NCBI GenBank assembly: GCA_016200965.1
Contig: JACQDT010000026.1
Span: forward strand, 1-61,683
Reading direction: 5' to 3'
Source of the DNA: Candidatus Azambacteria bacterium
GTDB taxonomy: Bacteria > Patescibacteriota > Minisyncoccia > GWC2-36-17 > WO2-46-25
Length of the DNA stretch: 61,683 nt
Below, one piece after another: positions 3,319 through 52,201 of the stretch; the stretch's first letter is position 1; each line of letters begins with the position of its first letter. The notes under the pieces were generated by a model. That model had not been told where the DNA came from, did no database searches, and saw only the letters and a program-made list of their open reading frames with translations. The position numbers and the translations under genes were made by a program.

Positions 3319-3319
3319 G

Positions 3320-11263: not shown

Positions 11264-11341
11264 ATATTTTTAGCTGTAAAAATGGTTAGAGAATGTAAAA
11301 CTTAGCGAGTAGAAATACCCCTGCTACCTACCCGCTACATT

Positions 11342-12958
11342 CTATGTTCTGTTAGCAAGCGCCGCTTTGATGAATTCGCGGAAAAGCGGGTGCGGGCGCA
11401 AAGGGCGGGAGGTAAATTCCGGGTGAAATTGCACGCCGACAAACCACGGATGATCCTTATTTTCCAAAATCTCGCACAAACCGCTTTCCGGATTGACGCC
11501 CGCGATTGTCATACCCTGTTCTTCAAACCGCGCTGTATATGCGCCGTTGAATTCATAGCGATGGCGATGGCGTTCCGTTATGTTCTCCTCGCCGTAGGCC
11601 GTGAAACTCTTCGAGTTTTTTTGCACGATGCATGCGTAATTGCCCAGGCGCATCGTGCCGCCTTTTTTATAGATAGTGCGCTGTCCTTCCATAAGGTAAA
11701 TGACCGGATTTTTCGTCTGCTCGTCAAACTCCGCCGAATGCGCATCGGCGATGCCCAGCACATTGCGCGCAAACTCGATCGCCGCGATCTGCATACCAAG
11801 ACACAATCCCAAATAGGGCACCTTGTGTTCCCGCGCGTATTTCGCCACCGCGATTTTCCCTTCCACTCCCCGCTTGCCGAAACCGCCCATCACCACAATG
11901 CCTTTTGCCTGCCTCACCTTTTCCCATTCCTCTTCCGCTTCTTTCCCGCCATTTTCCAATTTCTCTGAATCAATCCATATCAGCTCGGCTTTCCTGCCAT
12001 TTTCATATCCCGCCGATTTCACTGCTTCAATGACGCTCAGGTACGCATCTTTGAGCTCCGTGTATTTTCCGACAAGCGCGATGAATAAGGGAGGCAAATC
12101 CGATTTTATCTTTTCTACGAATGTTTCCCATGCGGCAAGCTTGGGCGCTTTGTGTTCCATGCGAAAATGATCCGAAACCAATTTCGTAATGGCGTATTTT
12201 TCAAAATTCAGCGGCACTTCGTAAATAGTGCCCACTGTCGGCGCAGGTATTACCGCCTCCTTGGGCACATCGCAAAACAGCGCGATTTTTTCAAGATGCT
12301 CTTTCTGCACATGATCATCATAGCGGCACAAAATAATATCGGCGTTGATACCCATGCGCCGCAGTTCGCGCACCGACGCCTGCGCCGGCTTTGTCTTTAC
12401 CTCGCCAGAACTCTTTAAATGCGGCAGAAGCACCAAATGGACGAACATGACGTTGTGATGCCCCTCTTCGTGATGCAGTTGACGTATCGCTTCAAGATAC
12501 GGCTCCGCCTCGATGTCGCCCACGGTGCCGCCGATCTCGCATATGAATATGTCCGCAGCGGAACTCTCCGCGCATTTTTTTATGTACTCTTTGATCGTGT
12601 TGGTCACGTGCGGGATCACCTGTATCGTTTTTCCCAAAAAGGCGCCCTCGCGCTCTTTATCCAGCACCCTCTGATACACCTGCCCGGTGGACACGCTTGA
12701 AAGGGATGAGAATTCTTCGTCAATAAATCGCTCGTAATGCCCCACATCCAGGTCGGTTTCGGCGCCGTCTTTAGTCACAAACACCTCGCCGTGCTGATAC
12801 GGATTCATTGTCCCCGGGTCCACGTTCAAATAAGGGTCCAGTTTCTGCAAAGCCACCTTGTGCCCCGCCGCTTTCAAAAGCATGCCAATGGACGCGCATG
12901 AAATTCCTTTCCCGAGCCCCGAACACACCCCTCCTGTGATAAAAATATATCGCGGCAT
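11342..12958 (-). CDS. pyrG: CTP synthase
   Basis: 538 aa. MPRYIFITGGVCSGLGKG and the glutamine amidotransferase motif GLCLGMQ. Confidence 0.95.
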   Translation of the reverse strand: MPRYIFITGGVCSGLGKGISCASIGMLLKAAGHKVALQKLDPYLNVDPGTMNPYQHGEVFVTKDGAETDLDVGHYERFIDEEFSSLSSVSTGQVYQRVLDKEREGAFLGKTIQVIPHVTNTIKEYIKKCAESSAADIFICEIGGTVGDIEAEPYLEAIRQLHHEEGHHNVMFVHLVLLPHLKSSGEVKTKPAQASVRELRRMGINADIILCRYDDHVQKEHLEKIALFCDVPKEAVIPAPTVGTIYEVPLNFEKYAITKLVSDHFRMEHKAPKLAAWETFVEKIKSDLPPLFIALVGKYTELKDAYLSVIEAVKSAGYENGRKAELIWIDSEKLENGGKEAEEEWEKVRQAKGIVVMGGFGKRGVEGKIAVAKYAREHKVPYLGLCLGMQIAAIEFARNVLGIADAHSAEFDEQTKNPVIYLMEGQRTIYKKGGTMRLGNYACIVQKNSKSFTAYGEENITERHRHRYEFNGAYTARFEEQGMTIAGVNPESGLCEILENKDHPWFVGVQFHPEFTSRPLRPHPLFREFIKAALANRT

Positions 12959-22429: not shown

Positions 22430-23734
22430 TTACACCTCCCCTAATTTTCCTGCAATATGCGATGCCAGCTCGGTAGCTTTGATGCGCTCTTGCTTGAGCG
22501 TATCGCGGTCACGCACGGTGACGGTGTTGTCTTCAAGCGTTTGAAAATCCACCGTCACGCACCACGGCGTGCCGATTTCATCCTGCGCAAAATAACGCTT
22601 GCCGATATTGCCCCGGTGATCCCATGCGACGGCAAAATGCATTTTGAGCGCGGAATGGATCTCTTTCGCTTTCGCGACCAGTTCGGGTTTGTTGGCAAGG
22701 AGCGGGAACACCGCAGCCTTGTACGGCGCCAGATGCGGCCTGAGCTTCAGGACGACTCTTCCCTCTTCTTCGGCATAGGCGTCGCACAACACCGCAAGCA
22801 CGGAACGATCCACGCCCCACGTCGGTTCAATGACGTGCGGATAAAACAACTCGTTCGTTTCCGCGTCGCGATACGGCGGTGCTTCTTTGAAATGATTTTT
22901 CAAGTCAAAATCGCCGCGGTACGCCAAACCGTACAATTCTTTTGTGCCGAACGGATAATCGTATTCAAAATCAATCGTGCGCTTGGAGTAATGCGCGCGT
23001 TTCCCATCGGGCACCTCAAGCTCGTGGATATGTTCCTTTTTTAGCCCCAGCGTGTCGGTCATCCACGACCACATTTGACTCCGCCACTCTTCAAACGACT
23101 CTTTCCAGTCAGCTTCTCTGACGAAATACTCTATTTCCATCTGTTCAAATTCGCGCGTGCGAAAAATAAAATTGCCTGGCGTGATCTCGTTGCGAAACGC
23201 CTTGCCTATCTGCGCGATGCCGAACGGCAATTTCTTGCGAGTGGTATCAAGCACCTGTTTGAAATCCACGAACATCGCCTGCGCCGTCTCGGGGCGGAAA
23301 TACGCGACATTGGCCTGTTCCTCTGCGGAACCCAGAAACGTCTTAAGCATCAGGTTAAACTGTTTTGGATTGGTCCACCTCCCCTTTTTTCCGCACGTAG
23401 GACAAACAACATCCTCACTCATATGGGCAAAACGAAAACGGTCATGGCAATTTTTACACTCTATAAGCGGATCACTGAAATTTTCCAAATGCCTACTTGC
23501 CTCCCACACTTTCGGATTCATGATAAGTGCGGCGTCAATACCTGTCATATCATCTCTCTGATGCACGAAACGCTTCCACCACAATTGTTTGATGTTATTT
23601 TTCAGCTCCGTGCCAAGCGGTCCGTAGTCCCACGAGTTGGCGAGGCCGCCGTAGATCTCGGACCCGGGATACACGAACCCCCGGCGCTTGGCCAAAGACA
23701 CGATATCTTCCATTGTTGGTTTTTGAGTATTCAT
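22430..23734 (-). CDS. glyQS: Glycine--tRNA ligase (dimeric class II type)
   Basis: 434 aa. MEDIVSLAKRRGFVYPGSEIYGGLANSWDYGPLG and class II motifs. Confidence 0.95.
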   Translation of the reverse strand: MNTQKPTMEDIVSLAKRRGFVYPGSEIYGGLANSWDYGPLGTELKNNIKQLWWKRFVHQRDDMTGIDAALIMNPKVWEASRHLENFSDPLIECKNCHDRFRFAHMSEDVVCPTCGKKGRWTNPKQFNLMLKTFLGSAEEQANVAYFRPETAQAMFVDFKQVLDTTRKKLPFGIAQIGKAFRNEITPGNFIFRTREFEQMEIEYFVREADWKESFEEWRSQMWSWMTDTLGLKKEHIHELEVPDGKRAHYSKRTIDFEYDYPFGTKELYGLAYRGDFDLKNHFKEAPPYRDAETNELFYPHVIEPTWGVDRSVLAVLCDAYAEEEGRVVLKLRPHLAPYKAAVFPLLANKPELVAKAKEIHSALKMHFAVAWDHRGNIGKRYFAQDEIGTPWCVTVDFQTLEDNTVTVRDRDTLKQERIKATELASHIAGKLGEV

Positions 23735-23751
23735 GGATTAATATTGCGTGC

Positions 23752-24074
23752 ATCTGCCGTAAACCATTCGCATGAAAAGACGCTCGTCGGTTCCCCCGGC
23801 GAGGAAACCGCGCTTGACCTCGGCCTCGCTCGTCCGCCCCATGCGTCGGTCAGGAAATCTTCGGAGCAGGCGAGCTGGGTGGTTTTGGTACAATGTGCGC
23901 GAAGCGACCAAAACCTCGCCGTCAGCGGAGAAAAGCCCGGTCGCCGCTGGAGCGGCCGGGCGGATTGACGGACCGACGCATGGGGCGGACACCCTGCCCG
24001 CCAGTTCGGCCCTGAGCTCACTGCCGAAGGGTCGGCCTCCGCACACTTTTCTTAACGAATGGTTTACGGCAGAT
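23752..24074. ncRNA. GC-rich, highly structured 323-nt non-coding element of unknown class (structured RNA or MITE-like insertion)
   Basis: A perfect 19-bp terminal stem (23752-23770 with 24056-24074) and a perfect 20-bp internal stem (23832-23851 with 23971-23990). Further helices: gaaaag/cuuuuc, 9-bp gguuuuggu/accaaaacc, 9-bp cccggucgc/gcggccggg, cgucgg/ccggcg. The overlapping ORFs look non-protein-like. Confidence 0.55.
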
Positions 24075-24102
24075 ATAATGTATAACATGCGTAATCTATT
24101 AT

Positions 24103-25983
24103 TTATTGCGAAATCCTTCCCTCGTCCCCTTTGAGCGAATTAAGAAGGTCGGTGTTCACGAGCGGAACCTGCCGCTCTATTTTAAGCCCGGTGAACGTAT
24201 CGGTTCCTTTCAACGCGGCTCCCGACGCTAAATTCACCACCTGCCCCACATGCACGAGCGCAGGAACAAACGCGACCTGAAAATCAACCCGCGCGGCGGG
24301 GGTAAGCAGTCCCGTTCCCGCAAATACCGTTCCCGGCTTCCACGTCACGACGCCCGAAGTCGCGTCATAGGTAATAGGGGCGCCTTCCGGATAGACCGCT
24401 CCGGTCCATTCGACGTTGGGGGGAATGACCGCGCTCACTTCAACGTCGCCGACGTCGTTGACCGTGTTGGACAACTGCCAGGACACCGCGAATGTTGTCC
24501 GCTCCCCCACTTTGGGCGGAAGCGGCCCGGTGTTTTGCAAAAGGCCGTCGCGCCAATACGCTTTCTCATTGAACGAGAACTGCGTGTTGATCTTCACTTC
24601 GAGCTTGTCTTCGCTTTCAATGGGAAGCCCGCTTAATCCTTCGGGGGGGATCGAGGAAGTGATTTTCACCACGGACGCCACAGTAAGATTTTTATCGGAA
24701 AAGTTTTTGGGAAGAAACGCCGGCTTCAGATTCACGGAAAAAGAAACCTGCCCTTCTTCCTTGGGATCCAAAATGGAAAGGTCGTGCACCCCCACCGCGT
24801 TCCAAATGACAGAATTAGTTCTTCCGTCAAATGATCCCCACTGCACGTTCAGCGTACGCACATCAATATACGTTTCATCTATTTTTGCGATTATGACGAC
24901 GTTGGGAATTTGCACGTTGGTGGTGTTTTTGTATCTTATTTTATACTGCAGAGCGGCGCCGGGATTGGCCGAAAAATCGCGTGAGTCATTCACCGTCTGG
25001 AACACGAACAAAGCGGAAGACGCGATTGCCACGTCGCTTGACGCGCTCGCGTATTGCACGAATTCTTCTCCGGCATCGGGCGCTCCTATTTCAAAAAAGA
25101 GCGATTTGCTTTCCCCCTGCACGCCGGAGAAACTTCCTTTGATCGCGATGGTCCCGCTTTCTCTTCCTTTTACGGCGTTGAGCTCCCACACATTATTTTC
25201 TGAGCCGGATGGCGCGGGAACTGCGGAAACGAAATGAAAGCCGGACGGATAGGTCGCCTTCAGCGTGATATAGCTGAACTCGGCGTCCGATTGGTTCACA
25301 TACTCAAGCGCAATGTCCAGATCCTTTTCCGACACCACTTGGGCGGGCACGTTCAAATTGAGCGCGAAAGGCGTGGACACTATCGTGAAAGAAAATGTTT
25401 TCTTGTCTTCAAACGGCGAAGAAAATCCCTCCGGCACGTAACGAAACACGGACTCGACGCTTTTGACCGAATCGCGCGACCCGAACACCCTGCCGCGGAA
25501 TGTCGCGCTTTTTTCCTGGCTCGGAAGCACGGTGCCGATGTCTGCTTTCATTTTCCTTCCCCCTTCAAGCACCACGCCCGCATCCGAAGAAAGAGTTCCC
25601 TCCGGCCACGTGAACAAGATTTGCGCGTCGCGGAGCGACGCCTTGGTATTATTGCGATACGTGACTGAAAATGAAATTTCCTCGCCCGCACCGATGCGCT
25701 CGGAACCGGTGATCCCTCCTTGTACGTCTTTGGTGCGGAACGGTTCCGCGGAGAAATACAAAAAATATCCCCACGTCACCACGCCCGCAACGCACAACAG
25801 CAAAAACGGAATCTTCAGATTCCTCGTTGCGGTGCGCGAAGCGGATGCCTTCAGCGTCTCTTCATCCCATCCTTCCTTTACGATTTTGGCGTCTTCCTCT
25901 TTGTATACTTCGTATCCTTTTTGCTTTTTTGCCTCCTCGCCGCGTTTATACAGTTTTTTCTCAAAATCTTCGAGTTTGTTCAT
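24103..25983 (-). CDS. Hypothetical membrane-anchored surface protein with repeated beta-sandwich-like (DUF11/CARDB-like) segments
   Basis: 626 aa. Charged N-terminus and one TM helix (IPFLLLCVAGVVTWGYFLYF), then a long Ser/Thr/Val/Asn-rich extracellular region with recurring ...F.V.Y.N... blocks. Confidence 0.55.
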   Translation of the reverse strand: MNKLEDFEKKLYKRGEEAKKQKGYEVYKEEDAKIVKEGWDEETLKASASRTATRNLKIPFLLLCVAGVVTWGYFLYFSAEPFRTKDVQGGITGSERIGAGEEISFSVTYRNNTKASLRDAQILFTWPEGTLSSDAGVVLEGGRKMKADIGTVLPSQEKSATFRGRVFGSRDSVKSVESVFRYVPEGFSSPFEDKKTFSFTIVSTPFALNLNVPAQVVSEKDLDIALEYVNQSDAEFSYITLKATYPSGFHFVSAVPAPSGSENNVWELNAVKGRESGTIAIKGSFSGVQGESKSLFFEIGAPDAGEEFVQYASASSDVAIASSALFVFQTVNDSRDFSANPGAALQYKIRYKNTTNVQIPNVVIIAKIDETYIDVRTLNVQWGSFDGRTNSVIWNAVGVHDLSILDPKEEGQVSFSVNLKPAFLPKNFSDKNLTVASVVKITSSIPPEGLSGLPIESEDKLEVKINTQFSFNEKAYWRDGLLQNTGPLPPKVGERTTFAVSWQLSNTVNDVGDVEVSAVIPPNVEWTGAVYPEGAPITYDATSGVVTWKPGTVFAGTGLLTPAARVDFQVAFVPALVHVGQVVNLASGAALKGTDTFTGLKIERQVPLVNTDLLNSLKGDEGRISQ

Positions 25984-26552
25984 TACACCTTACTGTAAAT
26001 ATTCGCGAAATGCCGCTCAAACGCATCCGCCATTTTATCAAGATCGCCTTCCGAAAGCACCACGCGCTGGCTGTCGAATGTCCGCACGATCGTTTTGTCC
26101 TCCGGCTCATACCCCAGCGCGCTTAAGAACTTAAATTCGAAATAGCGCAAAAAAAACTTCAGCTCCAGCGGCTTGAGTTCTTTTCGATTGAGATAATCGA
26201 ACGCTCCCACGACCAGATGGAATATGTCCTCGTCTTTTTCTTCAAACAGCGTGAACACGTCGATGAGCCGCGCCACATGCCGCGCCGCCTGCATCTTCTC
26301 CGTATCTTTCTTGAGCGTTGAAAAATGCTCTATCTCGCGGGCGGAAGTAAGCACCTTGTGCCGCACGCCAAGCACGAAAGCCACCTCGGAAAGATAAAAA
26401 AGCCCCGTATGTCCGGCGAGCTTCGCATCGGACCTGCGTATCCCGCGGGCGACCAATTCTATCTTGCCGTATTTCTTCGTATACAGCGTCAAAAACTGAT
26501 CGTGTTCCCCTTTGTTTTGCCGCTTGATAATGAGGCCTGTGGAAGCGCGCAT
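25983..26552 (-). CDS. recO: DNA repair protein RecO
   Basis: 189 aa. GLIIKRQNKGEHDQFLTLYTKKYGKIELVARGIRRSDAKLAGH is an OB-fold N-terminus typical of RecO. Confidence 0.8.
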   Translation of the reverse strand: MRASTGLIIKRQNKGEHDQFLTLYTKKYGKIELVARGIRRSDAKLAGHTGLFYLSEVAFVLGVRHKVLTSAREIEHFSTLKKDTEKMQAARHVARLIDVFTLFEEKDEDIFHLVVGAFDYLNRKELKPLELKFFLRYFEFKFLSALGYEPEDKTIVRTFDSQRVVLSEGDLDKMADAFERHFANIYSKV

Positions 26553-29500
26553 TAGCGTAATTTTTTAATTTCAAACGCGAGCGATTCGCCTTCAAGCATG
26601 ACTTCATGCGGGATGCGCATTGCGCTTTTTGATCCGCGCGCCATCCGTTTCGCGCCGATGCGGGACTGTATGTGCGCGTTCCATTGCTCGATCGCGCGCA
26701 TGACTTTTCCTTGAGCGTCGTAGGACAATGCAATCTTATCTTTGGGCATCAGTCCCGCCTCTTTGCGCGCCATCTGCACATTCCGGATGATCTCGCGCGC
26801 CATCCCCTCTTCAAGAAGCGCCGGCGAAAGGGTCGTATCAAGCCGGGCATCCTCGCCAAGCGACGGATCTGTTTTCACCTCCTTCACGTTCACCTCGTCT
26901 TGTATCAACTCGCAAAGCTCGCTCCCCAGCTTTTCTTTTATGATAAGGGTCTGCAATGGCTGGCGCACCCTGACGCCTGCCTGGGAACGGCGGGCAAGCG
27001 CAATGCTTACTATGTTTCTTGCCTTCATCATATCATATTCAAGCTGTTTATCAATTCGTTTTGCATCCGCGATCGGATATGTTTCCCCGTGCACGCTTTT
27101 TGTTTTTTTGAGCGCCTGCCATATATGCTCCGTGACAAACGGCATAAACGGCGCGGCCAGTTTGACCGTGGTTTCATAGGCATAGCGCAAAACCGCCGCG
27201 GCGGCGCGATAATCGGCTTTATGCTCCCGCAACTGGAACCGCTCGCGCGAACGGCGCACGTACCAATTGGTCAGATCGTCCAGAAACCCCGCGATGGTCC
27301 GCGACGCTTCAAGCATGTCGTAGCGATCAAGCGCCCCGCCTGCCGCAGCAATCGTCTGGTGCAAGCGCGAGATCACCCAGCGATCAAGTACGTTGGTTGG
27401 GTGGGGCGGGGCGTCGCCGGCGGACCGCTTCATGTCGGTATAGGAATGTAAAAACTGAAGCACATTCAAAAGTACCATTACCGATTTGCGCTGGGCATCC
27501 GTCACGTCTTTTTCGTCAAACCGTTTCGGCTCCCCCGCAGAGTTCACCGTGAAAAAATACCAGCGCAGGGCGTCAATGCCCAAGCGGTCGGCGATATCCA
27601 TCGGATCGGCGTAGTTTTTCTTTGACTTGGACATCTTTTTTCCTGCCTTGTCCAAAATATGCCCGAAGGAAATCACGTTGCGATACGGCGCTTCAACTTC
27701 AAGCAGCGCCGAAACCGCAAGCAGGGTATAAAACCATCCTCTGGTCTGATCCACGCCTTCGGAAATGAAATCAGCCGGAAACGCGATTTGTTTCAACTGT
27801 TTTTTATACGGCGCATCGTTCTGTTCGAACGGAAAATGCTCCTGTGCGAACGGCATTGCGCCCGAATCAAACCACACGTCGGTGACTTCGGGGACGCGCT
27901 TCATTGCGCTCCCGCATTCGGTACACGCCAGCGTAATTTCATCAATGTAGGGCTTATGCATATCAAGATTGCCGTTCTCGTCCAATGGAAGCCGCCCGGG
28001 CGGCAATTCACGTATTTCCCCTTTCTTTATATAACGCGCCCTCTCTCCCCTACGAAGCGTTTCCTTTTTATCGCAACCGGAAACAGCGGCCTCAAGCATC
28101 CAGAGCGGATCGCCGTGGCTGACAATGAAAATAGTTTTGCCTTTATATTTTAGCTCCGTACTTTTTATAAATCCGGTCATCCGCTTTTTCACGTCACCCC
28201 AATTCTCCCCACCTTCCGGTGCGGCGGTGAATCTGTCCGTTTTCCCAAGAAAGAATTTTTCAAATTCTTTCACCTTTCTCCCGTTAAAAACACCGAAATT
28301 AATTTCTCTGAGTAGTGCATCATTCACTATACCGTCTTGCGGCGCGCCAAGAATTGAAGCAACAATCTCCGCGCTCTCGCGAGCCCGCACAAGCGGAGAA
28401 GTGAAGATTAAATCTATTCGTACATCTGAAAATTTCTTTTTGAACTTTGCAAGTGAAATTTCAATTTCCTTCCTCCCCTTTGAAGTAACATGATTTTTCG
28501 GATCTCCTCCGGAATCGGCAATCCGTTTCATGTTGAACACCGCTTCCCCGTGCCGCATGATAAAATAGCGATTTTTTAATGTACTCCGCTCGCCAAGCCC
28601 GGCGATGCTCTCTATCGCCTCCGTATGGCCGCACCCTTCGCACCGCCATATCGGCATCGGCGTGCCCCAATACCGTTCGCGTGAAAACGCCCAGTCCTTT
28701 ACGTCTTTAAGCCACTTGCCGAATCTGCCTTCCTTTATATGGGACGGTATCCAGTTGATCGTCGCGTTACGCGAAAGCAATTCTTTTTTAAGAAGCGACA
28801 TTTTCACAAACCAGCTCTTGCGCGCGAAATACAAAAGCGGCGTGTCGCACCGCCAGCAAAACGGATACTCGTGTTCGTACAGCTCTTCGTTCAACAACAG
28901 CCCTCTTTTTTGCAATGCTTCGGTAATCAGCGGATCAGCGCGCTTCACGAACATTCCCTGCCACGGAAGCTCAGCGGAAAATTCCCCATTTTCTTTTACC
29001 GGATACAAGACAGGCAAGCCGTGCCGTTTCGCCGCCGCCATGTCATCCTCGCCGTATGCGGGCGCCAAATGCACGATGCCGGAACCGTCATCTGCGGACA
29101 CGAAATTCTCCTCCACCACAAAAAACGCCTTTTTATCCGGCTTCATGTATGAAAAAAGCTGTTCGTACTCAAGTCCGGCAAATTCCTTTCCTTTGAGCGT
29201 CTGCAAAACCGTCCATCCTTCCCCAAGCATCTGCATGCGGGCTTTGGCGATCACTAATACCTCGTCCCCTTTTTTTGCCCGCACATATTCAAGGTCGGAA
29301 TGCACGGCAAGCGCGACATTTCCGGAAAGCGTCCAGGGCGTCGTGGTCCACACCACAAAATACTCCTTTGCATCCGTGGCGCGATGATCGTCAAACACCG
29401 CCTTATGTAACGCTTTTTCTTTGAAAGCGTCGTCTTTTAACTCTGTGCGCTTGATGCGAAACTTCACATACACCGATTTTTCTTTGACTGTTTTGTATCC

Positions 29501-30094
29501 TTGCGCGATCTCGTGCGAAGAAAGCCCCGTGCCGCACCGCGTGCAATAGGGCGTTACTTTATAATCTTCCACCAAAAGCCCTTTCTCAAAAATGCGCGCG
29601 ATGACCCACCACAGCGTTTCCATGTACTCATTCTCGTAGGTAATATAAGGATGCTCCATGTCCAGCCAGAAACCGATGCGCTTGGTCACGCGCTCCCATT
29701 CATCTTTGTATTTCCATACCGATTCTTTGCACAAACGATTGAACTCGGCGACGCCCAATTTTTCAATGTCGGACTTCGCGCGGAAACCGAGCTGTTTTTC
29801 CACTTCAATTTCCACCGGAAGCCCATGCGTATCCCACCCCGCGCGCCGCGGCGCCCAGTACCCTTGCATCGTCTTATACCGTAAAAAAAGATCCTTAAAG
29901 CACCGCCCCATCACGTGCCCCGGATGCGGCATGCCGTTTGCCGTCGGCGGACCCTCATAAAACACAAATCGCTTCTTAGACGCGCGGCGGCTTTTCAGCG
30001 TTTTTTCAAACACTTTGTGTTTCTCCCACCACGCAAGAACTTCCTCTTCCATCAGCGCGATTTTTGATTTTTCTTTCTTATCGTTCGCTTCCAT
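26552..30094 (-). CDS. ileS: Isoleucine--tRNA ligase with an inserted histidine-phosphatase (PGAM-like) domain
   Basis: HIGH-type PHPGH, KMSKS, GTPMPIW, and CxxC knuckles (CEGCG, CTECG). About 190 extra residues between the knuckles carry RHGE, SPLVRARESA and VSHGD. Start set at ATG 30094 (MEANDKK). Confidence 0.9.
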   Translation of the reverse strand: MEANDKKEKSKIALMEEEVLAWWEKHKVFEKTLKSRRASKKRFVFYEGPPTANGMPHPGHVMGRCFKDLFLRYKTMQGYWAPRRAGWDTHGLPVEIEVEKQLGFRAKSDIEKLGVAEFNRLCKESVWKYKDEWERVTKRIGFWLDMEHPYITYENEYMETLWWVIARIFEKGLLVEDYKVTPYCTRCGTGLSSHEIAQGYKTVKEKSVYVKFRIKRTELKDDAFKEKALHKAVFDDHRATDAKEYFVVWTTTPWTLSGNVALAVHSDLEYVRAKKGDEVLVIAKARMQMLGEGWTVLQTLKGKEFAGLEYEQLFSYMKPDKKAFFVVEENFVSADDGSGIVHLAPAYGEDDMAAAKRHGLPVLYPVKENGEFSAELPWQGMFVKRADPLITEALQKRGLLLNEELYEHEYPFCWRCDTPLLYFARKSWFVKMSLLKKELLSRNATINWIPSHIKEGRFGKWLKDVKDWAFSRERYWGTPMPIWRCEGCGHTEAIESIAGLGERSTLKNRYFIMRHGEAVFNMKRIADSGGDPKNHVTSKGRKEIEISLAKFKKKFSDVRIDLIFTSPLVRARESAEIVASILGAPQDGIVNDALLREINFGVFNGRKVKEFEKFFLGKTDRFTAAPEGGENWGDVKKRMTGFIKSTELKYKGKTIFIVSHGDPLWMLEAAVSGCDKKETLRRGERARYIKKGEIRELPPGRLPLDENGNLDMHKPYIDEITLACTECGSAMKRVPEVTDVWFDSGAMPFAQEHFPFEQNDAPYKKQLKQIAFPADFISEGVDQTRGWFYTLLAVSALLEVEAPYRNVISFGHILDKAGKKMSKSKKNYADPMDIADRLGIDALRWYFFTVNSAGEPKRFDEKDVTDAQRKSVMVLLNVLQFLHSYTDMKRSAGDAPPHPTNVLDRWVISRLHQTIAAAGGALDRYDMLEASRTIAGFLDDLTNWYVRRSRERFQLREHKADYRAAAAVLRYAYETTVKLAAPFMPFVTEHIWQALKKTKSVHGETYPIADAKRIDKQLEYDMMKARNIVSIALARRSQAGVRVRQPLQTLIIKEKLGSELCELIQDEVNVKEVKTDPSLGEDARLDTTLSPALLEEGMAREIIRNVQMARKEAGLMPKDKIALSYDAQGKVMRAIEQWNAHIQSRIGAKRMARGSKSAMRIPHEVMLEGESLAFEIKKLR

Positions 30095-30127
30095 AATGCC
30101 GTATTGTATCGTGAAAGCGCGCAGACA

Positions 30128-30164
30128 GTCAAAAACCCCCGCCAAGCATGGCGGGGTTTTTGAC
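30128..30164 (-). terminator. Hairpin flanked by A5 and T5 runs (bidirectional-type intrinsic terminator) upstream of ileS
   Basis: gtcaaaaacccccgcc (30128-30143), loop aagcat, then ggcggggtttttgac (30150-30164). Confidence 0.65.
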
Positions 30165-30201
30165 TTAGTTCTCAACTTTTTGACTTTTCTAAGGTCAAGT
30201 A

Positions 30202-31423: not shown

Positions 31424-31867
31424 ATGGCGAACCTGGCGGACAACAGAAAAGCGCGGTTTGATTATGAGATCCTTGAAACGTACAAAGCGGGGGTTGTCCT
31501 TTTCGGTTTTGAAGCCAAAGCGGCGCGTCAAGGCAAAGCGCAGCTTACCGGATCATTTGTGCTCATGCGCGGCGGCGAAGCGTTCTGGGTGAACGGCATC
31601 ATCGCTCCCTACCAGCAAAAAAACACGCCTGATTTCTACCAGCAGGACCGCACGCGCAAGCTTCTTTTAACCAAAAAGGAAATCGCCGAACTTGAGGGAA
31701 TCACAAGCAAAAAGGGCTTGACACTCATTCCGCTTGGGTTGTATACTGAAGGGCGAAAAATCAAGCTGGAATTCGGGGTCGCGCGGGCTAAAAGAAAGTA
31801 CGAAAAGCGCGAGAAAACGCGGACACGGGAGTTCCAGCGCGAGAAGCAGAGAATGATGAGAGCGTAA
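31424..31867 (+). CDS. smpB: SsrA-binding protein
   Basis: 147 aa. NRKARFDYEILETYKAGVVLFGFEAK and a basic C-terminal tail. Confidence 0.95.
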   Translation: MANLADNRKARFDYEILETYKAGVVLFGFEAKAARQGKAQLTGSFVLMRGGEAFWVNGIIAPYQQKNTPDFYQQDRTRKLLLTKKEIAELEGITSKKGLTLIPLGLYTEGRKIKLEFGVARAKRKYEKREKTRTREFQREKQRMMRA

Positions 31868-31868
31868 C

Positions 31869-32250
31869 GGGGATGCCGGGCTTTGACAAAAGGAATATCC
31901 TTTGCACTGCGCACGCCGAGATGCCGTTTCTCGTTAAACAGCGGCACACGAATAAGTGCAAACTTATTTACACGGATAAAGAGCGCAATTGCTATGGCAT
32001 TTGCTCCCTCTTTGTCTTTCGCACGAGTTTAACTTGTGCCATCGAACCTTCTGACGTCCGATAAGAAATGTTCGGTGTCATATCATCGGGCTGCGCCCGG
32101 CGGCACTGCATCGCCGGAGTAAGCAAAAGCAGATAGACGCATGCGTATCTTGGCTGTTTTAAGCTCATGCGCGACAAAATAGAACTGCCTATGTGTGTAG
32201 AAGCGGCGTAAAGGACTTTTTGGATGTGGGTTCGACTCCCACCATCTCCA
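31869..32250 (+). ncRNA. ssrA: tmRNA (transfer-messenger RNA)
   Basis: 5' GGGGAUGCCGGGCUUUGAC and 3' GGAUGUGGGUUCGACUCCCACCAUCUCCA. The 7-bp acceptor stem includes G3:U, with a T-arm. It starts 2 nt after the smpB stop. Candidate tag frame runs from GCA 31958 to UAA 32030-32032. CCA is not encoded. Confidence 0.9.
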
Positions 32251-32273
32251 CAAAAACAAGGAGCGCGGTAACT

Positions 32274-34382: not shown

Positions 34383-35648
34383 TTATTTCAGTAAGTCATC
34401 AAGCTCGCATGAAAGCAGAGCTGATTTATTGAGCACGATCTGCTCTTTCTGGTTAAGATTATCGGCCGTCGTCCGAATGACCTTGGTCGTAATAGCGTCG
34501 CCAAGCATAATACTATTCACTTTTTTAAAATAGGATGCGTTTTTCCCAAAAAACAACGCTATAAACTGCTTGATTTGATCATTTAGTTCCGTGCCTGATT
34601 CGACTCTCACCAACCCCATTAAATCTTTCCTTGCATCCACTCCCAAGGGCTTCTGAAATTTTATCCATTCATAGGTCACTGTATAGACAACCCTTACAAT
34701 ATCTTTTTCCATCGTGTCATACGTATAAGTAAAGGAAAAATTGTCTGTGTTGAAATCTTCCTTTACGAGTATCCCCCGCAATGCAGTCACTGTATGGATT
34801 TTATATTCATCCAGAAGTCGCAAATAACTCTCTCGCCAATTCTTGAGCCAATTTCGAATGTAGTTTTTGTCTAAGAATAACGGCTCGAGATCCTGTTCGA
34901 GATTTTTGTCGCTTACTTTGTTGGTCTGAAGTGTAAGCTTATCGAAAAGCGCGCGAGGGTCTTTGATATCGATATTTTTCGCGCTTATGTAATCGAAATC
35001 CGGCACCACTTTCTTATTCATATACCAAAGGAGATCGTAAATATCACGACCTTTTTCTTCATAGATCGCATCGCCGATGCCACGAGTCCCTCGTAGAAAA
35101 ATGGCGGCAATCTTGCTCGCCATGAGTGCGGACATATTATAGGTGATAATGACGAGCGATAACTGGTCGCGATTTATCGGCCGACGTTCAGTAACGGTTT
35201 TCGGCGCGACAAAGTGATTGAGATCGATTTTTATGTGTATCTGTTTCGACGGATGGCCAAAACTAATCTCCTCGCCGACATTAAATTTTAGAAGCAACCC
35301 GCGGCCCTTGGTGGTTTTAACCGCCAGAAAATTGGCATTCGTACCATAGGTATTCTCGAAATGTTCATCAACTTCCTTTTTCAGCTCTTCAAGAAACTTT
35401 TCGGTCACCGCGTGGGACACTTCGAAATCGAGATCAACCGACATGCGATCCAATCCATGAATGATGCGCAGAGCCGAACCGCCATACATGATCCAGTCGT
35501 TGTATTCCGGATGGTGATAGATGAAATTGAGAACGTAATACTGCAACTCCTCTTTGAGCGCGTTACGCCGTGTCTCGGCATTGAGACCACCGTAATTAGC
35601 GAGGTCTTCCAATTTTCTTTTTAAGATTGAGGTTAGTCGTTCACTCAT
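34383..35648 (-). CDS. AbiEii/AbiGii family nucleotidyltransferase toxin (type IV TA)
   Basis: 421 aa. ...IMYGGSALRIIHGLDRMSVDLDFEV is a DUF1814-type NTase motif. It overlaps the upstream AbiEi-like gene by 8 nt. Confidence 0.8.
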   Translation of the reverse strand: MSERLTSILKRKLEDLANYGGLNAETRRNALKEELQYYVLNFIYHHPEYNDWIMYGGSALRIIHGLDRMSVDLDFEVSHAVTEKFLEELKKEVDEHFENTYGTNANFLAVKTTKGRGLLLKFNVGEEISFGHPSKQIHIKIDLNHFVAPKTVTERRPINRDQLSLVIITYNMSALMASKIAAIFLRGTRGIGDAIYEEKGRDIYDLLWYMNKKVVPDFDYISAKNIDIKDPRALFDKLTLQTNKVSDKNLEQDLEPLFLDKNYIRNWLKNWRESYLRLLDEYKIHTVTALRGILVKEDFNTDNFSFTYTYDTMEKDIVRVVYTVTYEWIKFQKPLGVDARKDLMGLVRVESGTELNDQIKQFIALFFGKNASYFKKVNSIMLGDAITTKVIRTTADNLNQKEQIVLNKSALLSCELDDLLK

Positions 35649-36358: not shown

Positions 36359-37003
36359 CTAGTTCTTCTCCCCCACCCGCTCCAAAATCCTTACCACCCC
36401 CTTATCCGCATTCACTTCAACAAGATCGCCGTCTTTCAAAACCTTAGTAGCGATCTTTGTCCCAATAATACAGGGAATTTTCAGTTCTCTTGAAACAATA
36501 GCGGCATGGCATGTTATACCTCCTTCATCCGTTACAATCGCAGAAGCTCTTTTCATAAGCGGAACAAACTCTGGGCGGGTCATGCCAGTTACTAATACAT
36601 CCCCGTCATTAAAATGACCTACTTTGTTTGCATCAGGAACAATACGGACAATTCCAGTCGTTTTTCCACGAGAACCGACCGATCCTTTTATCTCTGCCAT
36701 ACCAAGTCCGGATTCCTGCTCCAAATGTTTTTGCTTGAGATATTCTAATATCTCAGCAACATCACGCGTCTCCGAATACACTTGTCCGTCTTCATCCAAA
36801 TAAGCAACAAAGCCATTTGGCCGATTTTCAATCTCACTCTTTTTTGAAATAAGCGTCTTTATTCCTTCCTTAAAATCGCCATCCACCATGTAGGTCGCGA
36901 GAGAAGCATCAATCCCTACACGACGAAACAACTCTTGTCCCGCAATAGCCCAGGCTGTCTGCAACTGAGCAAAAGGATCTTTACGCCAATCTCGAATCTC
37001 CAT
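36359..37003 (-). CDS. PEP-utilizing enzyme mobile (swivel phospho-His) domain protein; C-terminal piece of a frameshifted paralog
   Basis: GDVLVTGMTRPEFVPLMKRASAIVTDEGGITCHAAIVSRELKIPCIIGT. The frame stays open 29 codons upstream of the ATG (to the stop at 37091-37093) and reads protein-like (AKKEYAEYKKWLLSITDEERKIAEFTQKA). Confidence 0.7.
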   Translation of the reverse strand: MEIRDWRKDPFAQLQTAWAIAGQELFRRVGIDASLATYMVDGDFKEGIKTLISKKSEIENRPNGFVAYLDEDGQVYSETRDVAEILEYLKQKHLEQESGLGMAEIKGSVGSRGKTTGIVRIVPDANKVGHFNDGDVLVTGMTRPEFVPLMKRASAIVTDEGGITCHAAIVSRELKIPCIIGTKIATKVLKDGDLVEVNADKGVVRILERVGEKN

Positions 37004-37809
37004 AGCTTTTTGCGTGAATTCCGCGATTTTTCTTTCCTCATCTGTGATGGATAATAACCATTTTTTGTATTCCGCGTATTCTTTCTTTGCTTATTCTCTT
37101 GTTTATTCAAATCTGCCTTTTTTTCTACTAAATTCTTTTCAATATCCAACAAAGCTTCTTGTATCTCTGCCAAGGGCTTCGGAGAAAAATAGTCTGTTCC
37201 TGTGTACCAAAATAGTTTCTCTTTATTTTTAATATTTTTCTCAATAAGCGAGATTGCATGGCGAAGGCGCCTTGTTTCAAAGGACTCAAAATAGGGATGG
37301 GTTGCTTTTTCCCATATACTGTCGATTGCCTTCTTTTTTTGATTTCCTATGACTGAAAGAGTAATTTTTTCATCAAATGTTTCAACATATATGGTATGGA
37401 CAAGAAGAGCTCCAAAAAAATTTCTTCCCTCGGTGATTATGTTTTTAATATCCGTCTCTAACATATTCTCAGGATCAAATCGGATAATCTCATCATACCA
37501 CTGCTGAATTTCTTTTCTCAACACCTGCGCCTTTTTCTCAAATTGATCTTCTTTTTCGCCGCCATTCCAATAATCTTGAAAGATTTCTCGCGCGTATCCT
37601 TCATAGCGTGTCTCGCTAAAGAGTATATGGGAATTTCTACCCACAATAACCAAGAGGCCGACAAGCGGAAGCGTGCTATATGCTAAAGAATGAATCTTCT
37701 TCGCATTCCAGTTAAACATAAAATTCGCCGGCGAATACGGACCTTCCCAGAAATAAATCCTTTCGCCGTTTGAGGACTCGAAAAATTTTTTAACTAATGA
37801 TGATTGCAT
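36916..37809 (-). CDS. Middle (substrate-domain-like) piece of the same PEP-utilizing paralog; lacks the ATP-grasp domain
   Basis: 297 aa. Alignable by eye to the region after the ATP-grasp domain of 41579-43084 (FWEGPYSPANF.../FRSRYIPAMLP...; EKLFWYTGTDYF/EEYFWFPYEYV). The last ~30 codons (KNTRNTKNGYYPSQMRKEKSRNSRKK) look out of frame. Confidence 0.6.
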   Translation of the reverse strand: MQSSLVKKFFESSNGERIYFWEGPYSPANFMFNWNAKKIHSLAYSTLPLVGLLVIVGRNSHILFSETRYEGYAREIFQDYWNGGEKEDQFEKKAQVLRKEIQQWYDEIIRFDPENMLETDIKNIITEGRNFFGALLVHTIYVETFDEKITLSVIGNQKKKAIDSIWEKATHPYFESFETRRLRHAISLIEKNIKNKEKLFWYTGTDYFSPKPLAEIQEALLDIEKNLVEKKADLNKQENKQRKNTRNTKNGYYPSQMRKEKSRNSRKKLWRFEIGVKILLLSCRQPGLLRDKSCFVV

Positions 37810-37818
37810 GGAATTCCG

Positions 37819-38679
37819 TCAGGACTTTTGGCGTTTTTTGTTAATAAAAGCTACCAACCATTTAATGTGGAAATCAAAATCTTTCTCATTTCTGCTGTTA
37901 TCCTCAAAGAAATGCGAAAGGCCAAAAAGTGTGCCCGTGATCACTTTCCCTCCGCAAAGCAATAATGTTCTGAATATGTAATTACCAACCATTCCGTTTA
38001 CGGGGATAAGAATGTTATATCCAGCTTTTACCGCAAGATCTAAGTCTATCGCCCAATTTTTTGCGTCTATATTCTCTTTTTTCAGTTCATTGATTATCCA
38101 CTCGGCATCTTCGTATGTTCCATTCAACAAACCAACCACTCCATCCCTATTCTCCTTTTTCCTTTGGTATGTCTCATGACGAACTCCGGTGAAAATAGCT
38201 ACTTTGTAAACAATTTTCCACTCCTTCGCAAAATTCACTAATCCTCTTGCAATACGCAATCGATACTCTTTGTCCCAACCTTGAGGATTGCTCACGGGAC
38301 TCAAGAAAAATCGATTCCCGGAAACATCCTCCATAATAAATGGTGAGTCCTCACTATAACTTTCTCCCGTCAATTTTCCATACGCTTCGATGGTTTTAAA
38401 ATCATCAATTGTCCCCCTAACAATGCCGTCCACTTCGCCATCAACCAGCATTTTGGTGATTTTTTCTTCTGGTTTCTCATTGATAACAATCTGGAATCCT
38501 TCTATATTTTTTATTCTGTCCGTCCCCACCAGTATGATGTCCGCATACTCGCTACTCCTCCGCAGGCTTTCTAAAATCTCCGGATCTTCTGCGCTTAAAC
38601 CAAAAGCGATTTTTGGTTTCCCAATCGTGAGTAACTCACTAACACGCTTATTGAATTGTTCAAATGCATTATTTGTCAT
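37819..38679 (-). CDS. Phosphate acetyl/butyryltransferase (PTA_PTB)-like protein
   Basis: 286 aa. VDGEVDGIVRGT and PVNGMVGNYIFRTLLLCGG resemble the PTA/PTB family G-x-aDG-x-v-G and GN-x-x-yK motifs. This is a weak call. Confidence 0.4.
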   Translation of the reverse strand: MTNNAFEQFNKRVSELLTIGKPKIAFGLSAEDPEILESLRRSSEYADIILVGTDRIKNIEGFQIVINEKPEEKITKMLVDGEVDGIVRGTIDDFKTIEAYGKLTGESYSEDSPFIMEDVSGNRFFLSPVSNPQGWDKEYRLRIARGLVNFAKEWKIVYKVAIFTGVRHETYQRKKENRDGVVGLLNGTYEDAEWIINELKKENIDAKNWAIDLDLAVKAGYNILIPVNGMVGNYIFRTLLLCGGKVITGTLFGLSHFFEDNSRNEKDFDFHIKWLVAFINKKRQKS

Positions 38680-38687
38680 AAAACTTA

Positions 38688-40610
38688 CTACCCATTATTT
38701 TTCAAAAGATGGTCTATATTCTTACATGTTTTTTCAATGAGTTTCTGAATTATCAGAATATTTTCTTCGTTATATGCTCCGGTATTATAATTATTATCCA
38801 CCTCATCCATATAAGCCGCCTCGTTACATTCTAACTGAAAAGTATTTACGCCTTTTTGACGCTCACCATAAAATTCTACATTATGCGCTCCCTTAAAAGG
38901 ATGATTAACGCCAACAAGTCCACCCTTAATGTGCTTGGTCAATCGCTTTTTAATGCTGTCGTCCAACGCATTAAAATTCTTTTCCAAAGCATGAGTAAAG
39001 GCATCTCTGATATCTTGATCACAGGATGTCCCATCCGCGTCCCCGATAATAAACATCGGTAATTCTTCGGGGTTTTCTACGCCATAGAGTTTGAAATAGT
39101 CGTGAACCACAGAGCTTATCGGGAAAGAATGCCCATCAATGACAAGAATTCGTTCGTTATCACCTCTTCTGTCGGCTAAACTGCCGATAACTCCCATCAT
39201 CTTATTGTAATAAGATACATAGAAATCCTCTGCCAGATTCCGCACTTCTTCCCCTGTTGGTTCCTGTCCCGCTTTGTACATGGTCCCACCGCGTATCCCC
39301 TTGTACCACAAAACCTTTCCGGGTACTTTTGAGTTTTGCTCAAGGAGTGGAGCTCTGTTTGGGTCAACGATAAAGCGGGATAATTTCGTCCCCACACTCG
39401 GAATATCCTTGGAACGAAAAATTTCGCTTGTCCCTCTATCAACAAAAATAAAAGTATCTTTACCCTCTTCTGTTGCGCGCTCCCAAAGATCGCTCGGAAT
39501 ATATTCCCCAGCGTGAGGCCTGCCAAAACAAACAGATACGCATTCGCGCTCTCTTAACGCTCTATCGTCTACATCAACGGCATTCTCTGGCGTTATTTCA
39601 TCGCTCTCTATACTCTGACGCGTCGGCAATCCTCTCGCTTCCAGAGCATTAAGCACTTTCACAGGGCGCTCCCTTTTCTCCATATCCATAACAAAAGGGA
39701 ATTGCGAAATTTTTTCAATCTTTTCGTCAGTAATTATTATATCTTTTATCACTTCGTGGGGGATTTCCTCATTGAATTCAAATACCAACCTTTTTCCATC
39801 ACCATCTTCAACTTCCTTCTTGTAGCGTATGCGGATGGCAAACTCATCCGAATTTTTATTTAAAATATCAACTTCAAACCCTTCCGTATAATCAAACCCT
39901 TGATTACTGAGAGCTTGGACAAACTTATCTCGTTCTTCTGCGCCTTTGGTCTTTTCTATCACCTTGGCAAGAAATGATTCGTTCACGCCTTGGTGCGTCC
40001 CGAAAAATCGCTCCAATGTATCTGAGTATTCTTTTTGCTCGTCTTGCACTAATTTATCCCACCTTTTTGCAATCCCTATGTACTTGTCTATAATACTTGC
40101 GATATTTGAAGCTCCTCTTGAATAGGTAAAACTTGTTTCGTCTCCCGATTCCTTTGCTAATCTGTCGCTTTGTTCAACTAAAAACTTCAGGTAGTCGCCT
40201 CGCTTAAAATGATCGAGTGCGCTTACTCCGAATTCAGAACTAAAATCTATACCGAAGTCCAATCTTCTATCTACCCCTATTTTGGATCCTTTAGCCAGTC
40301 CTTTGTCTACTTTTTCTCTCAACTCTTCCAACGACTCATCTCCCGTTATCCCTTCTTGATTTCCAGACATCACGAACCCGGCGGTTTCCTGCGCTCGTGT
40401 TCTCGGGCTTCCGAAAGCGACTGACTGTTTCATATTTTTTGTATCACTTTTTTCTTTGGCTTGTTTTTTCCCAACAGGAGTTAATTCAATATCAAGATCC
40501 GATTTTGACTTGTTGTTTTCTTTTTCTCCGTGCCGAAAAAACGAGAGTTCAATCTTAGATGTGTACTCTTCGTGACTTTCAGATTTTTGAATATCCTCGA
40601 GTCTTTCCAT
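38688..40610 (-). CDS. Fusion protein: histidine-phosphatase-like N-terminal domain plus N-formylglutamate amidohydrolase (FGase)-like C-terminal domain
   Basis: N-half: FFRHGEKE, GSPRTRAQETAG, GTHQG. C-half: FGRPHAGEYIP, SRFIVDPNR, LVIDGHSFP, GVNHPFKG, resembling FGase family motifs. ATG at 40610 (MERLEDIQ). Confidence 0.55.
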   Translation of the reverse strand: MERLEDIQKSESHEEYTSKIELSFFRHGEKENNKSKSDLDIELTPVGKKQAKEKSDTKNMKQSVAFGSPRTRAQETAGFVMSGNQEGITGDESLEELREKVDKGLAKGSKIGVDRRLDFGIDFSSEFGVSALDHFKRGDYLKFLVEQSDRLAKESGDETSFTYSRGASNIASIIDKYIGIAKRWDKLVQDEQKEYSDTLERFFGTHQGVNESFLAKVIEKTKGAEERDKFVQALSNQGFDYTEGFEVDILNKNSDEFAIRIRYKKEVEDGDGKRLVFEFNEEIPHEVIKDIIITDEKIEKISQFPFVMDMEKRERPVKVLNALEARGLPTRQSIESDEITPENAVDVDDRALRERECVSVCFGRPHAGEYIPSDLWERATEEGKDTFIFVDRGTSEIFRSKDIPSVGTKLSRFIVDPNRAPLLEQNSKVPGKVLWYKGIRGGTMYKAGQEPTGEEVRNLAEDFYVSYYNKMMGVIGSLADRRGDNERILVIDGHSFPISSVVHDYFKLYGVENPEELPMFIIGDADGTSCDQDIRDAFTHALEKNFNALDDSIKKRLTKHIKGGLVGVNHPFKGAHNVEFYGERQKGVNTFQLECNEAAYMDEVDNNYNTGAYNEENILIIQKLIEKTCKNIDHLLKNNG

Positions 40611-40702
40611 AGACAAAGATTGTTTTAGACATAAATAATATTGGCGGGCATTGAACAAAATCCATTGTCAGTAAAGCACTTAATCGCCTTGAAGTAAATG
40701 CC

Positions 40703-41467: not shown

Positions 41468-41578
41468 ATCCCATACTCTTGGACCAACATATTCGTAGGG
41501 AAACCAAAAGTATTCTTCAGAGAATTTTTTTATTGCCTTTCCAACAATCGAACTATCTATACCCTGATTTCTTGCTAA

Positions 41579-52200: not shown

Positions 52201-52201
52201 A

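Follow-up and report, generated by a model that had tools for sequence, protein, structure and literature searches.

The DNA studied here is a 61,683-nt stretch (positions 1 to 61,683 of contig JACQDT010000026.1, assembly GCA_016200965.1, read on the forward strand; hereafter the window) from an Azambacteria-like Patescibacterium that carries the NCBI label Candidatus Azambacteria. Between the gene for a DUF11/DUF7619 protein and glyQS, the gene for a class II glycyl-tRNA synthetase (GlyRS), it contains a 323-nt palindromic element composed of an outer shell and an inner core. The element is a lineage-specific insertion at this site, and its core belongs to a dispersed family whose copies share a three-way junction fold and fold in a strand-specific manner. 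No description of such a family was found in Rfam or in the literature searched; the family is thus previously undescribed, while the kind of thing that it represents, the structured interspersed repeat, is already known. With a confidence that we place about midway, the 323-nt feature is read as a lineage-specific insertion, and its core as a dispersed repeat of the ERIC/bcr1/REPIN type that acts while folded as a single strand; the family has no coding capacity and would be non-autonomous. The same element was present in a second assembly of the source organism, GCA_016178885.1 (locus L004), which was 99.93% identical over 5.6 kb and showed no differences across the 320 nt of the element that it covers. 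Coordinates of the features are collected in Table 1.

An earlier inspection of the letters of the window, made before any database search and referred to below as the sequence-only reading, had described the element as GC-rich with perfect 19-bp and 20-bp long-range stems. Both stems proved to be exact, the left outer arm ATCTGCCGTAAACCATTCG pairing with the right outer arm over 19 bp, and GTCCGCCCCATGCGTCGGTC (23832-23851) being the exact complement of 23971-23990 over 20 bp, a pairing that is prolonged to 28 nt at 89%. These were the two strongest inverted repeats of the window, and each arm was found at just its two sites when up to 3 mismatches were allowed (shuffle expectation, 0.01). 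Every smaller helix that had been named was located as well, namely GAAAAG/CTTTTC (23774-23779/24046-24051), GGTTTTGGT/ACCAAAACC (23881-23889/23907-23915), CCCGGTCGC/GCGGCCGGG (23936-23944/23952-23960, with one T:G on the + strand) and CGTCGG/CCGGCG, the last within the hairpin at 23783-23803. The GC content of the element peaked at 0.60-0.67 versus about 0.42-0.55 in the flanks. Compared with shuffles, the minimum free energy (MFE) of the whole element had a z-score of -8.6 on the + strand and of -6.2 on the - strand (-171.8 kcal/mol on the latter).

A first lead to relatives of the core came from a blast comparison of the element with fetched loci, in which short matches clustered directly after glyQS in the locus L010, which comes from a Logan assembly of SRR22388172. 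The stretch concerned was a 171-nt hairpin whose loops match those of the window core and whose stems differ. A covariance model (CM) made from the window core alone, with the structure set by hand (R1), matched it over the full length (copy A; 59.5 bits, E 3.5e-10), and a model made from the window and L010 sequences (R2) detected two more copies on the same 29-kb contig, L023 (copy B, 82.8 bits; copy C, 60.6 bits). Scores of the homologues across R1 and R2 ranged from 59.5 to 185 bits, and nhmmer, which uses sequence only, recovered all copies with E-values of 1e-28 to 6e-38. The family unit is about 150-175 nt long, and the four copies share 40-69% pairwise identity, or 55-69% inside one genome. 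No further core copy was detected in the window with the CM filters off, so that one copy in 61.7 kb compares with three in 29 kb of the relative.

In all four copies the predicted fold is a three-way junction consisting of P1, which closes the structure with 24-28 bp, an arm P3a-P3-P4(-P5) with a 7-nt bulge between P3 and P4, and a hairpin, P2; where P1 meets the arms, no more than 3-4 bases are unpaired on the 5' side. A P5 hairpin, GCGCGRAGCG, caps the arm in two copies, while copies B and C have a shortened P4/P5 tip. Standard pairs made up 90.7% of the pair cells across the four copies, with changes on both sides in 40 of the 56 pairs (P1, 18/25; P2, 8/10; P3, 5/6; P4, 8/8). None of 500 shuffles reached these values, and slid partners were only about 40% paired. 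The distal part of P1 was the most variable, the arms of the window and L010 copies differing at 13 of 25 pairs by both-side changes, and identity between these two copies was 63% in unpaired columns versus 42% in paired ones. The invariant or near-invariant unpaired motifs were the GCUKGGUG bulge, the YCGCUGGAR loop of P2, GAA at the base of P1, and CG.C-G.GG...AA between P3 and P2. As DNA, the first two of these motifs (GCTGGGTGG/GCTTGGTG and GCTGGAG, at 23875-23883 and 23946-23953 of the window and in the L023 copies) resemble what we take to be the Escherichia coli Chi sequence, GCTGGTGG, and the P5 tip GCGAAGC is presumably the same as the classic extra-stable DNA mini-hairpin.

Folding of the core is strand-specific. 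On the model strand, the four copies contained 16 G:U versus 3 A.C oppositions (binomial p = 0.004), one of the wobbles being T23941:G23955 in P2, which exists on the + strand only. In each of the four copies the model strand was also the more stable one; the difference was 11-20 kcal/mol under RNA parameters and 4-6 kcal/mol under DNA parameters. It corresponds to the + strand of the window, antisense to glyQS; with respect to the flanking genes, this strand is antisense for the window copy, A and C but sense for copy B. A mutation bias linked to replication or transcription does not explain the asymmetry, because copy B shows the same bias despite being oriented, on one contig, opposite to A and C. 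A strand-specific single-strand hairpin without target-site duplication, as in the REP/REPIN-RAYT and IS200/IS605 systems, was found in all four copies.

The strand asymmetry also bears on a cruciform or recombination site, which the sequence-only reading had listed as its third option and which is disfavoured. That the element acts as a double-stranded DNA site, be it a cruciform, a recombination site or a replication signal, appears highly improbable: perfect palindromic arms and the ability of both strands to fold are what such a site would show, but the excess of G:U over A.C and the greater stability of one strand in every copy argue against it, as do loops that are conserved yet non-palindromic and the location of the copies in ordinary operon spacers. 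The older assembly L004 ends 3 nt inside the outer arm, as might be expected at such a site. However, the other end of this 5.6-kb contig also breaks, inside a gene, and the break at the element therefore carries little evidential weight and is not evidence of repetition.

That the element was inserted into a pre-existing gene order was indicated by a comparison with ten types of glyQS locus found in relatives, at a GlyRS identity of 76-81%. The DUF11 gene was directly upstream of glyQS in seven of the ten, with the genes for RecO and IleRS further upstream where the contig extends, and the gap before glyQS was only 1-116 nt. In none of the ten was the element observed at the DUF11-glyQS site, nor did these gaps contain any match to it; relatives had neither shell nor core there. 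Because the short gaps of the relatives lack it, the element is a lineage-specific insertion rather than a conserved leader of glyQS. It was probably inserted recently and is not regarded as a control element of glyQS. The sequence-only reading had placed glyQS 17 nt away without a Shine-Dalgarno sequence. The distance holds for the ATG at 23734, whereas in the public call this 427-aa protein begins at 23713, which makes the distance 38 nt. The lack of a Shine-Dalgarno sequence was confirmed; relatives without the element likewise have none before glyQS, so that this trait is unrelated to the element and was not caused by it. The stretch between the element and glyQS showed no promoter-like site for this gene.

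These observations essentially exclude a glyQS leader, an antisense regulator of glyQS or a divergent T-box, the leader having been part of the structured-RNA option of the sequence-only reading. Such a role was suggested by the position of the element immediately upstream of glyQS, by the copy 4 nt downstream of glyQS in the relative, and by the window bulge GGGUGGU, which presumably resembles part of a T-box sequence. A T-box leader lies on the sense strand, 5' of its gene, and is conserved upstream of orthologues; here, the folded strand is antisense to glyQS and the element is missing upstream of the orthologues. Moreover, no T-box match was obtained from Rfam even at E <= 10, and GGGUGG is lost in copies B and C, which have UUGGUG. 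An association of the core family with glyQS was considered, since the first two copies both flank this gene, and was dropped: the other nine locus types lack the element, and the next two copies flank pyrG and the uracil-DNA glycosylase (UDG) gene, and a potassium-channel gene and thiI.

The orthologous sites of the window are empty for each of the three homologues. The spacer after the glyQS stop codon is 10 nt and contains no core copy, the gene upstream of thiI overlaps it as ATGA at about 3318-3321, and pyrG and the UDG gene are separated by 78 nt of unrelated sequence (11264-11341). Thus, the four copies occupy four different spacers of two related genomes. Similarity among the copies ends at P1, which indicates that the family carries neither promoter nor terminator, and no U-tract follows P1 in any of them. 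No direct repeat that could represent a target-site duplication was observed at the outer ends (flanked by CATTAT and GCACGC on the glyQS-sense strand), at the inner ends, or at copies A to C. The flanks of the window and L010 copies aligned no better than shuffles; a resemblance noticed there by eye, which might have been a remnant of the 3' end of glyQS or homology to the outer shell, was dismissed since its alignment scores were at shuffle level. Within the 61.7 kb and 29 kb compared, no common tetranucleotide was obvious at the four 5' or 3' junctions, the ends of which are not defined to the base. A 12-nt motif, CGCATGGGGCGG, also occurs in L005 and L010, in a hairpin that precedes the next gene there; it was judged a chance match, the orthologous leader of the window being without it.

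The sequence-only reading had found no resemblance to RNase P, SRP, 6S, T-box or riboswitches, and had regarded the open reading frames (ORFs) across the element as nonsense; both statements were borne out. With Rfam 15, whose families also cover ribozymes and the OLE, ROOL, GOLLD and HEARO RNAs, a scan of the window at gathering thresholds returned only the tmRNA at 31869-32253. The sole match from a permissive scan of 23500-24350 (E <= 10) was a trivial hairpin similarity to a plant miRNA model, at 16.9 bits versus a cut-off of 197, with no match to 6S (RF00013); the three L010/L023 copies also had no Rfam match. No known family was therefore assigned to the element. The ORFs across it had no Pfam match, and the four tested were absent from a collection of 15 billion proteins. 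A 116-aa translation across the element, compared with 1.84 billion representative proteins, matched only two unrelated repeat proteins.

The novel structured RNA proposed in the sequence-only reading thus stands in so far as no Rfam family applies and the core fold is conserved, covarying and common to the core and three homologues. In the main rival of the repeat reading, the core would be a stand-alone trans-acting small-RNA gene with several paralogues, in which P1 would protect the RNA or serve as a processing stem (e.g., for RNase III) and the loops would bind protein or RNA. We regard this as a possibility on the low side. It would account for the strand-specific covarying fold with conserved unpaired motifs and for the retention of structure at 40-69% identity, even within one compact genome almost without spacers, which suggests selection on each copy. 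The GC content of the copies (0.56-0.66) is well above that of the genome, as is common in structured RNAs, and a closed rod of 150-175 nt recalls 6S and Y RNAs. On the other hand, a gene of this kind is hard to reconcile with flanks that contain no conserved promoter or terminator and, upstream of the window copy, no promoter-like site on the + strand, with the mixed orientation of the copies relative to operons, and with close relatives that differ in presence and site in an otherwise identical gene order. The P4/P5 tip is deleted in two copies, and the features of 6S are missing, there being no large central bubble.

The second option of the sequence-only reading was an insertion similar to a miniature inverted-repeat transposable element (MITE). 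It was upheld in that the element is a lineage-specific insertion and its core comes from a dispersed repeat family, but a classical MITE was not supported: instead of near-identical copies with target-site duplications, copies of 40-69% identity without duplication were found, their terminal stems were the least conserved parts, and the outer arms had no other paired copy in the collections scanned. Exact-arm searches, which targeted these least conserved parts, gave three single-arm matches of the outer arm in 596 Gb of reference genomes, in unrelated phyla and at chance level, one chance match of a single inner arm in metagenome contigs, inside a coding region, and no match of either arm in viral contigs. 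Only 40-nt GC-rich chance matches in Streptomyces plasmids, and no real match, were obtained by blastn from phage and plasmid collections. Patterns of the conserved motifs returned matches in viral contigs, none of which was confirmed by the covariance model.

The shell comprises 80 nt to the left (23752-23831) and 84 nt to the right (23991-24074) of the core, 164 nt in total. On the + strand its halves can pair beyond P1 and so lengthen the rod, from the core outwards, through GCTC/GAGC, TCGGC/GCCGA, TTGACC/GGTCGG (two G:U), GCG/CGC, GAAAAG/CTTTTC and the 19-bp arms. No homologue of the shell was detected by blast in any fetched locus, and the idea that it is a diverged or inverted member of the core family was rejected, as no similarity was found by nhmmer. 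Two nested classical MITEs, one of 164 nt with a 19-bp terminal inverted repeat (TIR) hit mid-way by one of 159 nt with a 20-28-bp TIR, and both served by DDE transposases encoded elsewhere, seem quite improbable. Both layers have perfect TIRs and the size of MITEs, the whole unit is missing from relatives, and shell and core favour opposite folding strands, which would fit two independent units. Nevertheless, no target-site duplication exists at either boundary pair, the arms lack paired copies in the collections searched, and the termini are the least conserved parts of the copies, though a transposase would need conserved ends. Covariation of the internal stems P2, P3 and P4 would not be explained by the binding of a transposase to the ends, the G:U excess argues for a single-stranded form, and the nearly central position of the core (61 versus 65 nt on either side) would have to be a coincidence for a random second hit. 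The core may have landed mid-way in an earlier palindromic insertion, or shell and core may have moved together as a longer variant. A promoter-like sequence, TTAACG-16-TATAAT, was observed at 24052-24079 (+) as a consensus match only; its -35 hexamer is inside the right outer arm, its -10 hexamer begins at 24074, the last base of the element, and extends into the flank, and it is directed into the antisense of the DUF11 gene.

If the core is a dispersed repeat acting as a folded single strand, as we favour, the family would spread, or be recognised, via a single-stranded intermediate (RNA or ssDNA), and recognition would rely on stem shape and on the conserved unpaired motifs rather than on terminal sequences. 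Such behaviour would match that of structured repeats of the REPIN/RAYT, ERIC and bcr1 types and would set the family apart from classical MITEs, which their terminal inverted repeats define. The main local effect in the window would be a very stable hairpin in the DUF11-glyQS intercistronic RNA or DNA, with a stem of at least 20 bp, long enough for an RNase III substrate; the hairpin might terminate, process or stabilise the transcript. Several points weigh against this interpretation. Only four copies are known, from two genomes and three of them on one contig, and the genome of the window, with one copy in 61.7 kb, may have no other. Mobility is deduced from presence and absence at orthologous sites, and neither a target-site duplication, a conserved terminus nor a mobilising enzyme was seen, nor were empty and filled junctions within one population; the window genes scanned contained no domain of a transposase, reverse transcriptase or integrase. 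At 55-69% identity, the copies of one genome are older than a typical MITE burst, which could mean that each was kept for a host function. With three of the four copies antisense to their operon and no promoter carried, production of the folding strand as RNA is not readily accounted for. The alignments behind the covariation counts were fitted by the CM and thereby favour the structure, and the E-values are approximate. Finally, this interpretation does not account for the outer shell, which without the core folds better on the - strand (-86.4 versus -73.7 kcal/mol).

A more far-reaching reading, speculative and in our estimation unlikely, is that the core represents a new class of structured single-stranded element of Patescibacteria that persists under selection in genomes with hardly any room for intergenic DNA otherwise, either as a functional multi-copy small RNA or as the substrate of an undescribed structure-guided mobilisation. 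In the former case, the RNA might be excised from any transcript via the 24-28-bp stem, and its two conserved GCUGG-type loops might bind a partner; in the latter, the three-way junction might be recognised instead of terminal sequences.

Table 1. Features of the 323-nt element, homologous copies of its core, and neighbouring genes (window coordinates unless a locus is given)
Feature	Position	Strand	Basis and remarks
Whole composite insertion, 323 nt (outer palindromic shell and inner core)	23752-24074	+	Missing from orthologous DUF11-glyQS spacers of relatives; MFE -176.4 kcal/mol
Outer terminal arm, left, 19 nt	23752-23770		Perfect inverted repeat with 24056-24074
Left shell half	23771-23831		Sequence, folding; with GAAAAG (23774-23779) and local hairpin CTCGTCGG-TTCCC-CCGGCGAG (23783-23803)
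Inner core, dispersed structured-repeat family member, three-way junction	23832-23990	+	CM R1 211.8 bits, CM R2 181.6 bits; MFE -101.5 (+) versus -85.6 (-)
P1, 5' arm	23832-23859	+	Pairing to 23963-23990 through 20 perfect bp, G23853-C23969 and finally AATC/GATT
P3-P4-P5 arm	23869-23920	+	P3 23869-23874/23915-23920; P4 23882-23889/23907-23914; P5 mini-hairpin GCGCGAAGCG 23897-23906
Conserved unpaired bulge CTGGGTG (consensus GCUKGGUG)	23875-23881	+	CU.GGUG invariant in 4/4 copies
P2 hairpin	23935-23961	+	23935-23944/23952-23961; loop CGCTGGA 23945-23951, CGCUGGA invariant in 4/4 copies
P1, 3' arm	23963-23990	+	Pairs with 23832-23859
Right shell half	23991-24055		Sequence, folding; with CTTTTC (24046-24051) and local palindrome 23998-24035
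Outer terminal arm, right	24056-24074		Perfect inverted repeat with 23752-23770
Core copy A	L010:5065-5239 / L023:135-309	-	CM; 4 nt downstream of the relative's glyQS
Core copy B	L023:19939-20095	+	CM R2; fills spacer between potassium-channel gene and thiI
Core copy C	L023:11619-11770	-	CM R2; between pyrG and UDG gene
glyQS (class II glycyl-tRNA synthetase), downstream of insertion	22430-23734	-	Pfam tRNA-synt_2b and HGTP_anticodon
626-aa DUF11/DUF7619 protein gene, upstream of insertion	24103-25983	-	Pfam; stop codon 28 nt from element; same neighbour in most relatives examined
RecO	25983-26552	-	Gene order
IleRS	26552-30175	-	Gene order

The genes around the element are almost all on the - strand, in the order IleRS, RecO, DUF11/DUF7619, element, class II GlyRS, and homologues of the glyQS product with 72-81% identity carry the name glycine--tRNA ligase. 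The predicted IleRS is a 1207-aa protein in which a His_Phos_1 domain (residues 538-706) splits the halves of the class I catalytic domain. The fusion was also observed in the relative L005 (1170 aa), while L018 has a separate 190-aa His_Phos_1 gene directly upstream of a 938-aa ileS, and L017 has the same 938-aa ileS. In L005, a 700-nt "intergenic" stretch after glyQS contains an unannotated ORF at 5330-5620 (MAIVRVKEKFQITVPAHLR...) that was judged by eye to be of the AbrB/SpoVT-like antitoxin type. Further along the window, the gene for SmpB (31424-31867, +) is followed after one base by that of the tmRNA (31869-32253, +), which encodes the tag peptide ANLFTRIKSAIAMAFAPSLSFARV and is overlapped on the opposite strand by a spurious 213-aa ORF. 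Two AbiEii-type nucleotidyltransferase toxin genes and one restriction-modification pair, consisting of an MjaI-like endonuclease and an N6/N4 DNA methylase fused to a staphylococcal-nuclease domain, were located at 34383-35648 (-), 43480-44160 (+) and 51550-53488 (-). The region 36359-43084 (-) is a cluster of split pieces of phosphoenolpyruvate-utilising enzymes, with two separate PEP-utilizers mobile-domain proteins and one PPDK_N protein, and has in its middle a 656-aa fusion of His_Phos_1 with N-formylglutamate-amidohydrolase.

The genomes of Patescibacteria, or candidate phyla radiation (CPR), measure about 1 Mb and leave a few bases between genes, and to our knowledge few non-coding RNAs or repeat families have been described for this large, uncultivated group. 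The present family inserts between overlapping housekeeping genes and keeps a strand-specific three-way junction at 40-69% identity; it should therefore be either a selfish element that persists in an unusual, shape-based manner or a lineage-specific host RNA, and either outcome would lengthen the very short list of CPR non-coding elements. For annotation, the element is not to be taken as a glyQS riboswitch or T-box, nor the ORFs across it as genes. Copies of the core can also mislead gene callers: the public call of the UDG gene in L023 begins inside copy C (stretch concerned, 11708-11776), whereas the window orthologue puts the true ATG at 11777.

Several known systems resemble the core in part. 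Integron attC sites, which are hairpins of 57-141 nt with R''/L''...L'/R' boxes (RYYYAAC...GTTRRRY) and go with an integron integrase and a cassette array, were considered and rejected: the ends misfit the R-box consensus, the length is 159-323 nt, the flanks are housekeeping genes in conserved order, and no integrase domain was found in the scanned window genes. With 6S and Y/YrlA RNAs the core shares a size in the range of 150-200 nt, 5' and 3' ends enclosed in a long closing stem, and conserved internal loops, which in the known RNAs bind protein. It differs from 6S in having a three-way junction instead of a large central bubble and from YrlA in having no tRNA-like module, with no Ro partner seen; unlike both, it is multi-copy at variable sites, without Rfam match, promoter or terminator. 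Classical MITEs, such as the Correia elements of Neisseria, are likewise small, non-coding, intergenic and missing from relatives, and have terminal inverted repeats, which are perfect in the window copy. In the core family, however, the termini are not conserved, internal stems covary and folding is strand-specific, and no target-site duplication is present.

Structured repeats of the ERIC/bcr1 type and hairpin elements of the REPIN/RAYT type come nearest to the core. The REP/REPIN-RAYT system (IS200-like Y1/HUH) and the PATEs derived from IS200/IS605 are non-autonomous, leave no target-site duplication, form strand-specific hairpins that tolerate G:T, and are recognised by the shape of a folded single strand, not by the sequence of terminal repeats, as would also apply to the core. 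REPINs, however, are simple hairpins of about 70-110 nt made of two short REP units and occur in tens to hundreds of near-identical copies, and PATEs have a separate subterminal hairpin at each end, whereas in the core a closing stem connects the two ends. Neither a RAYT nor a TnpA gene was seen within the 61.7 kb and 29 kb. From ERIC/IRU of enterobacteria and from bcr1 of the Bacillus cereus group (about 155 nt, transcribed and with compensatory changes), the family differs by the lack of any sequence similarity, by a three-way junction with conserved loop motifs in place of a simple hairpin, by far fewer copies so far, far more diverged (40-69%), and by its host, a Patescibacterium with a reduced genome; bcr1, in addition, has a target-site duplication. 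What it has in common with ERIC/IRU and bcr1 is that all are non-coding units of 100-170 nt located in intergenic operon spacers in either orientation, with a long, imperfect hairpin in which compensatory changes preserve the stems and with a presence that varies among close genomes.

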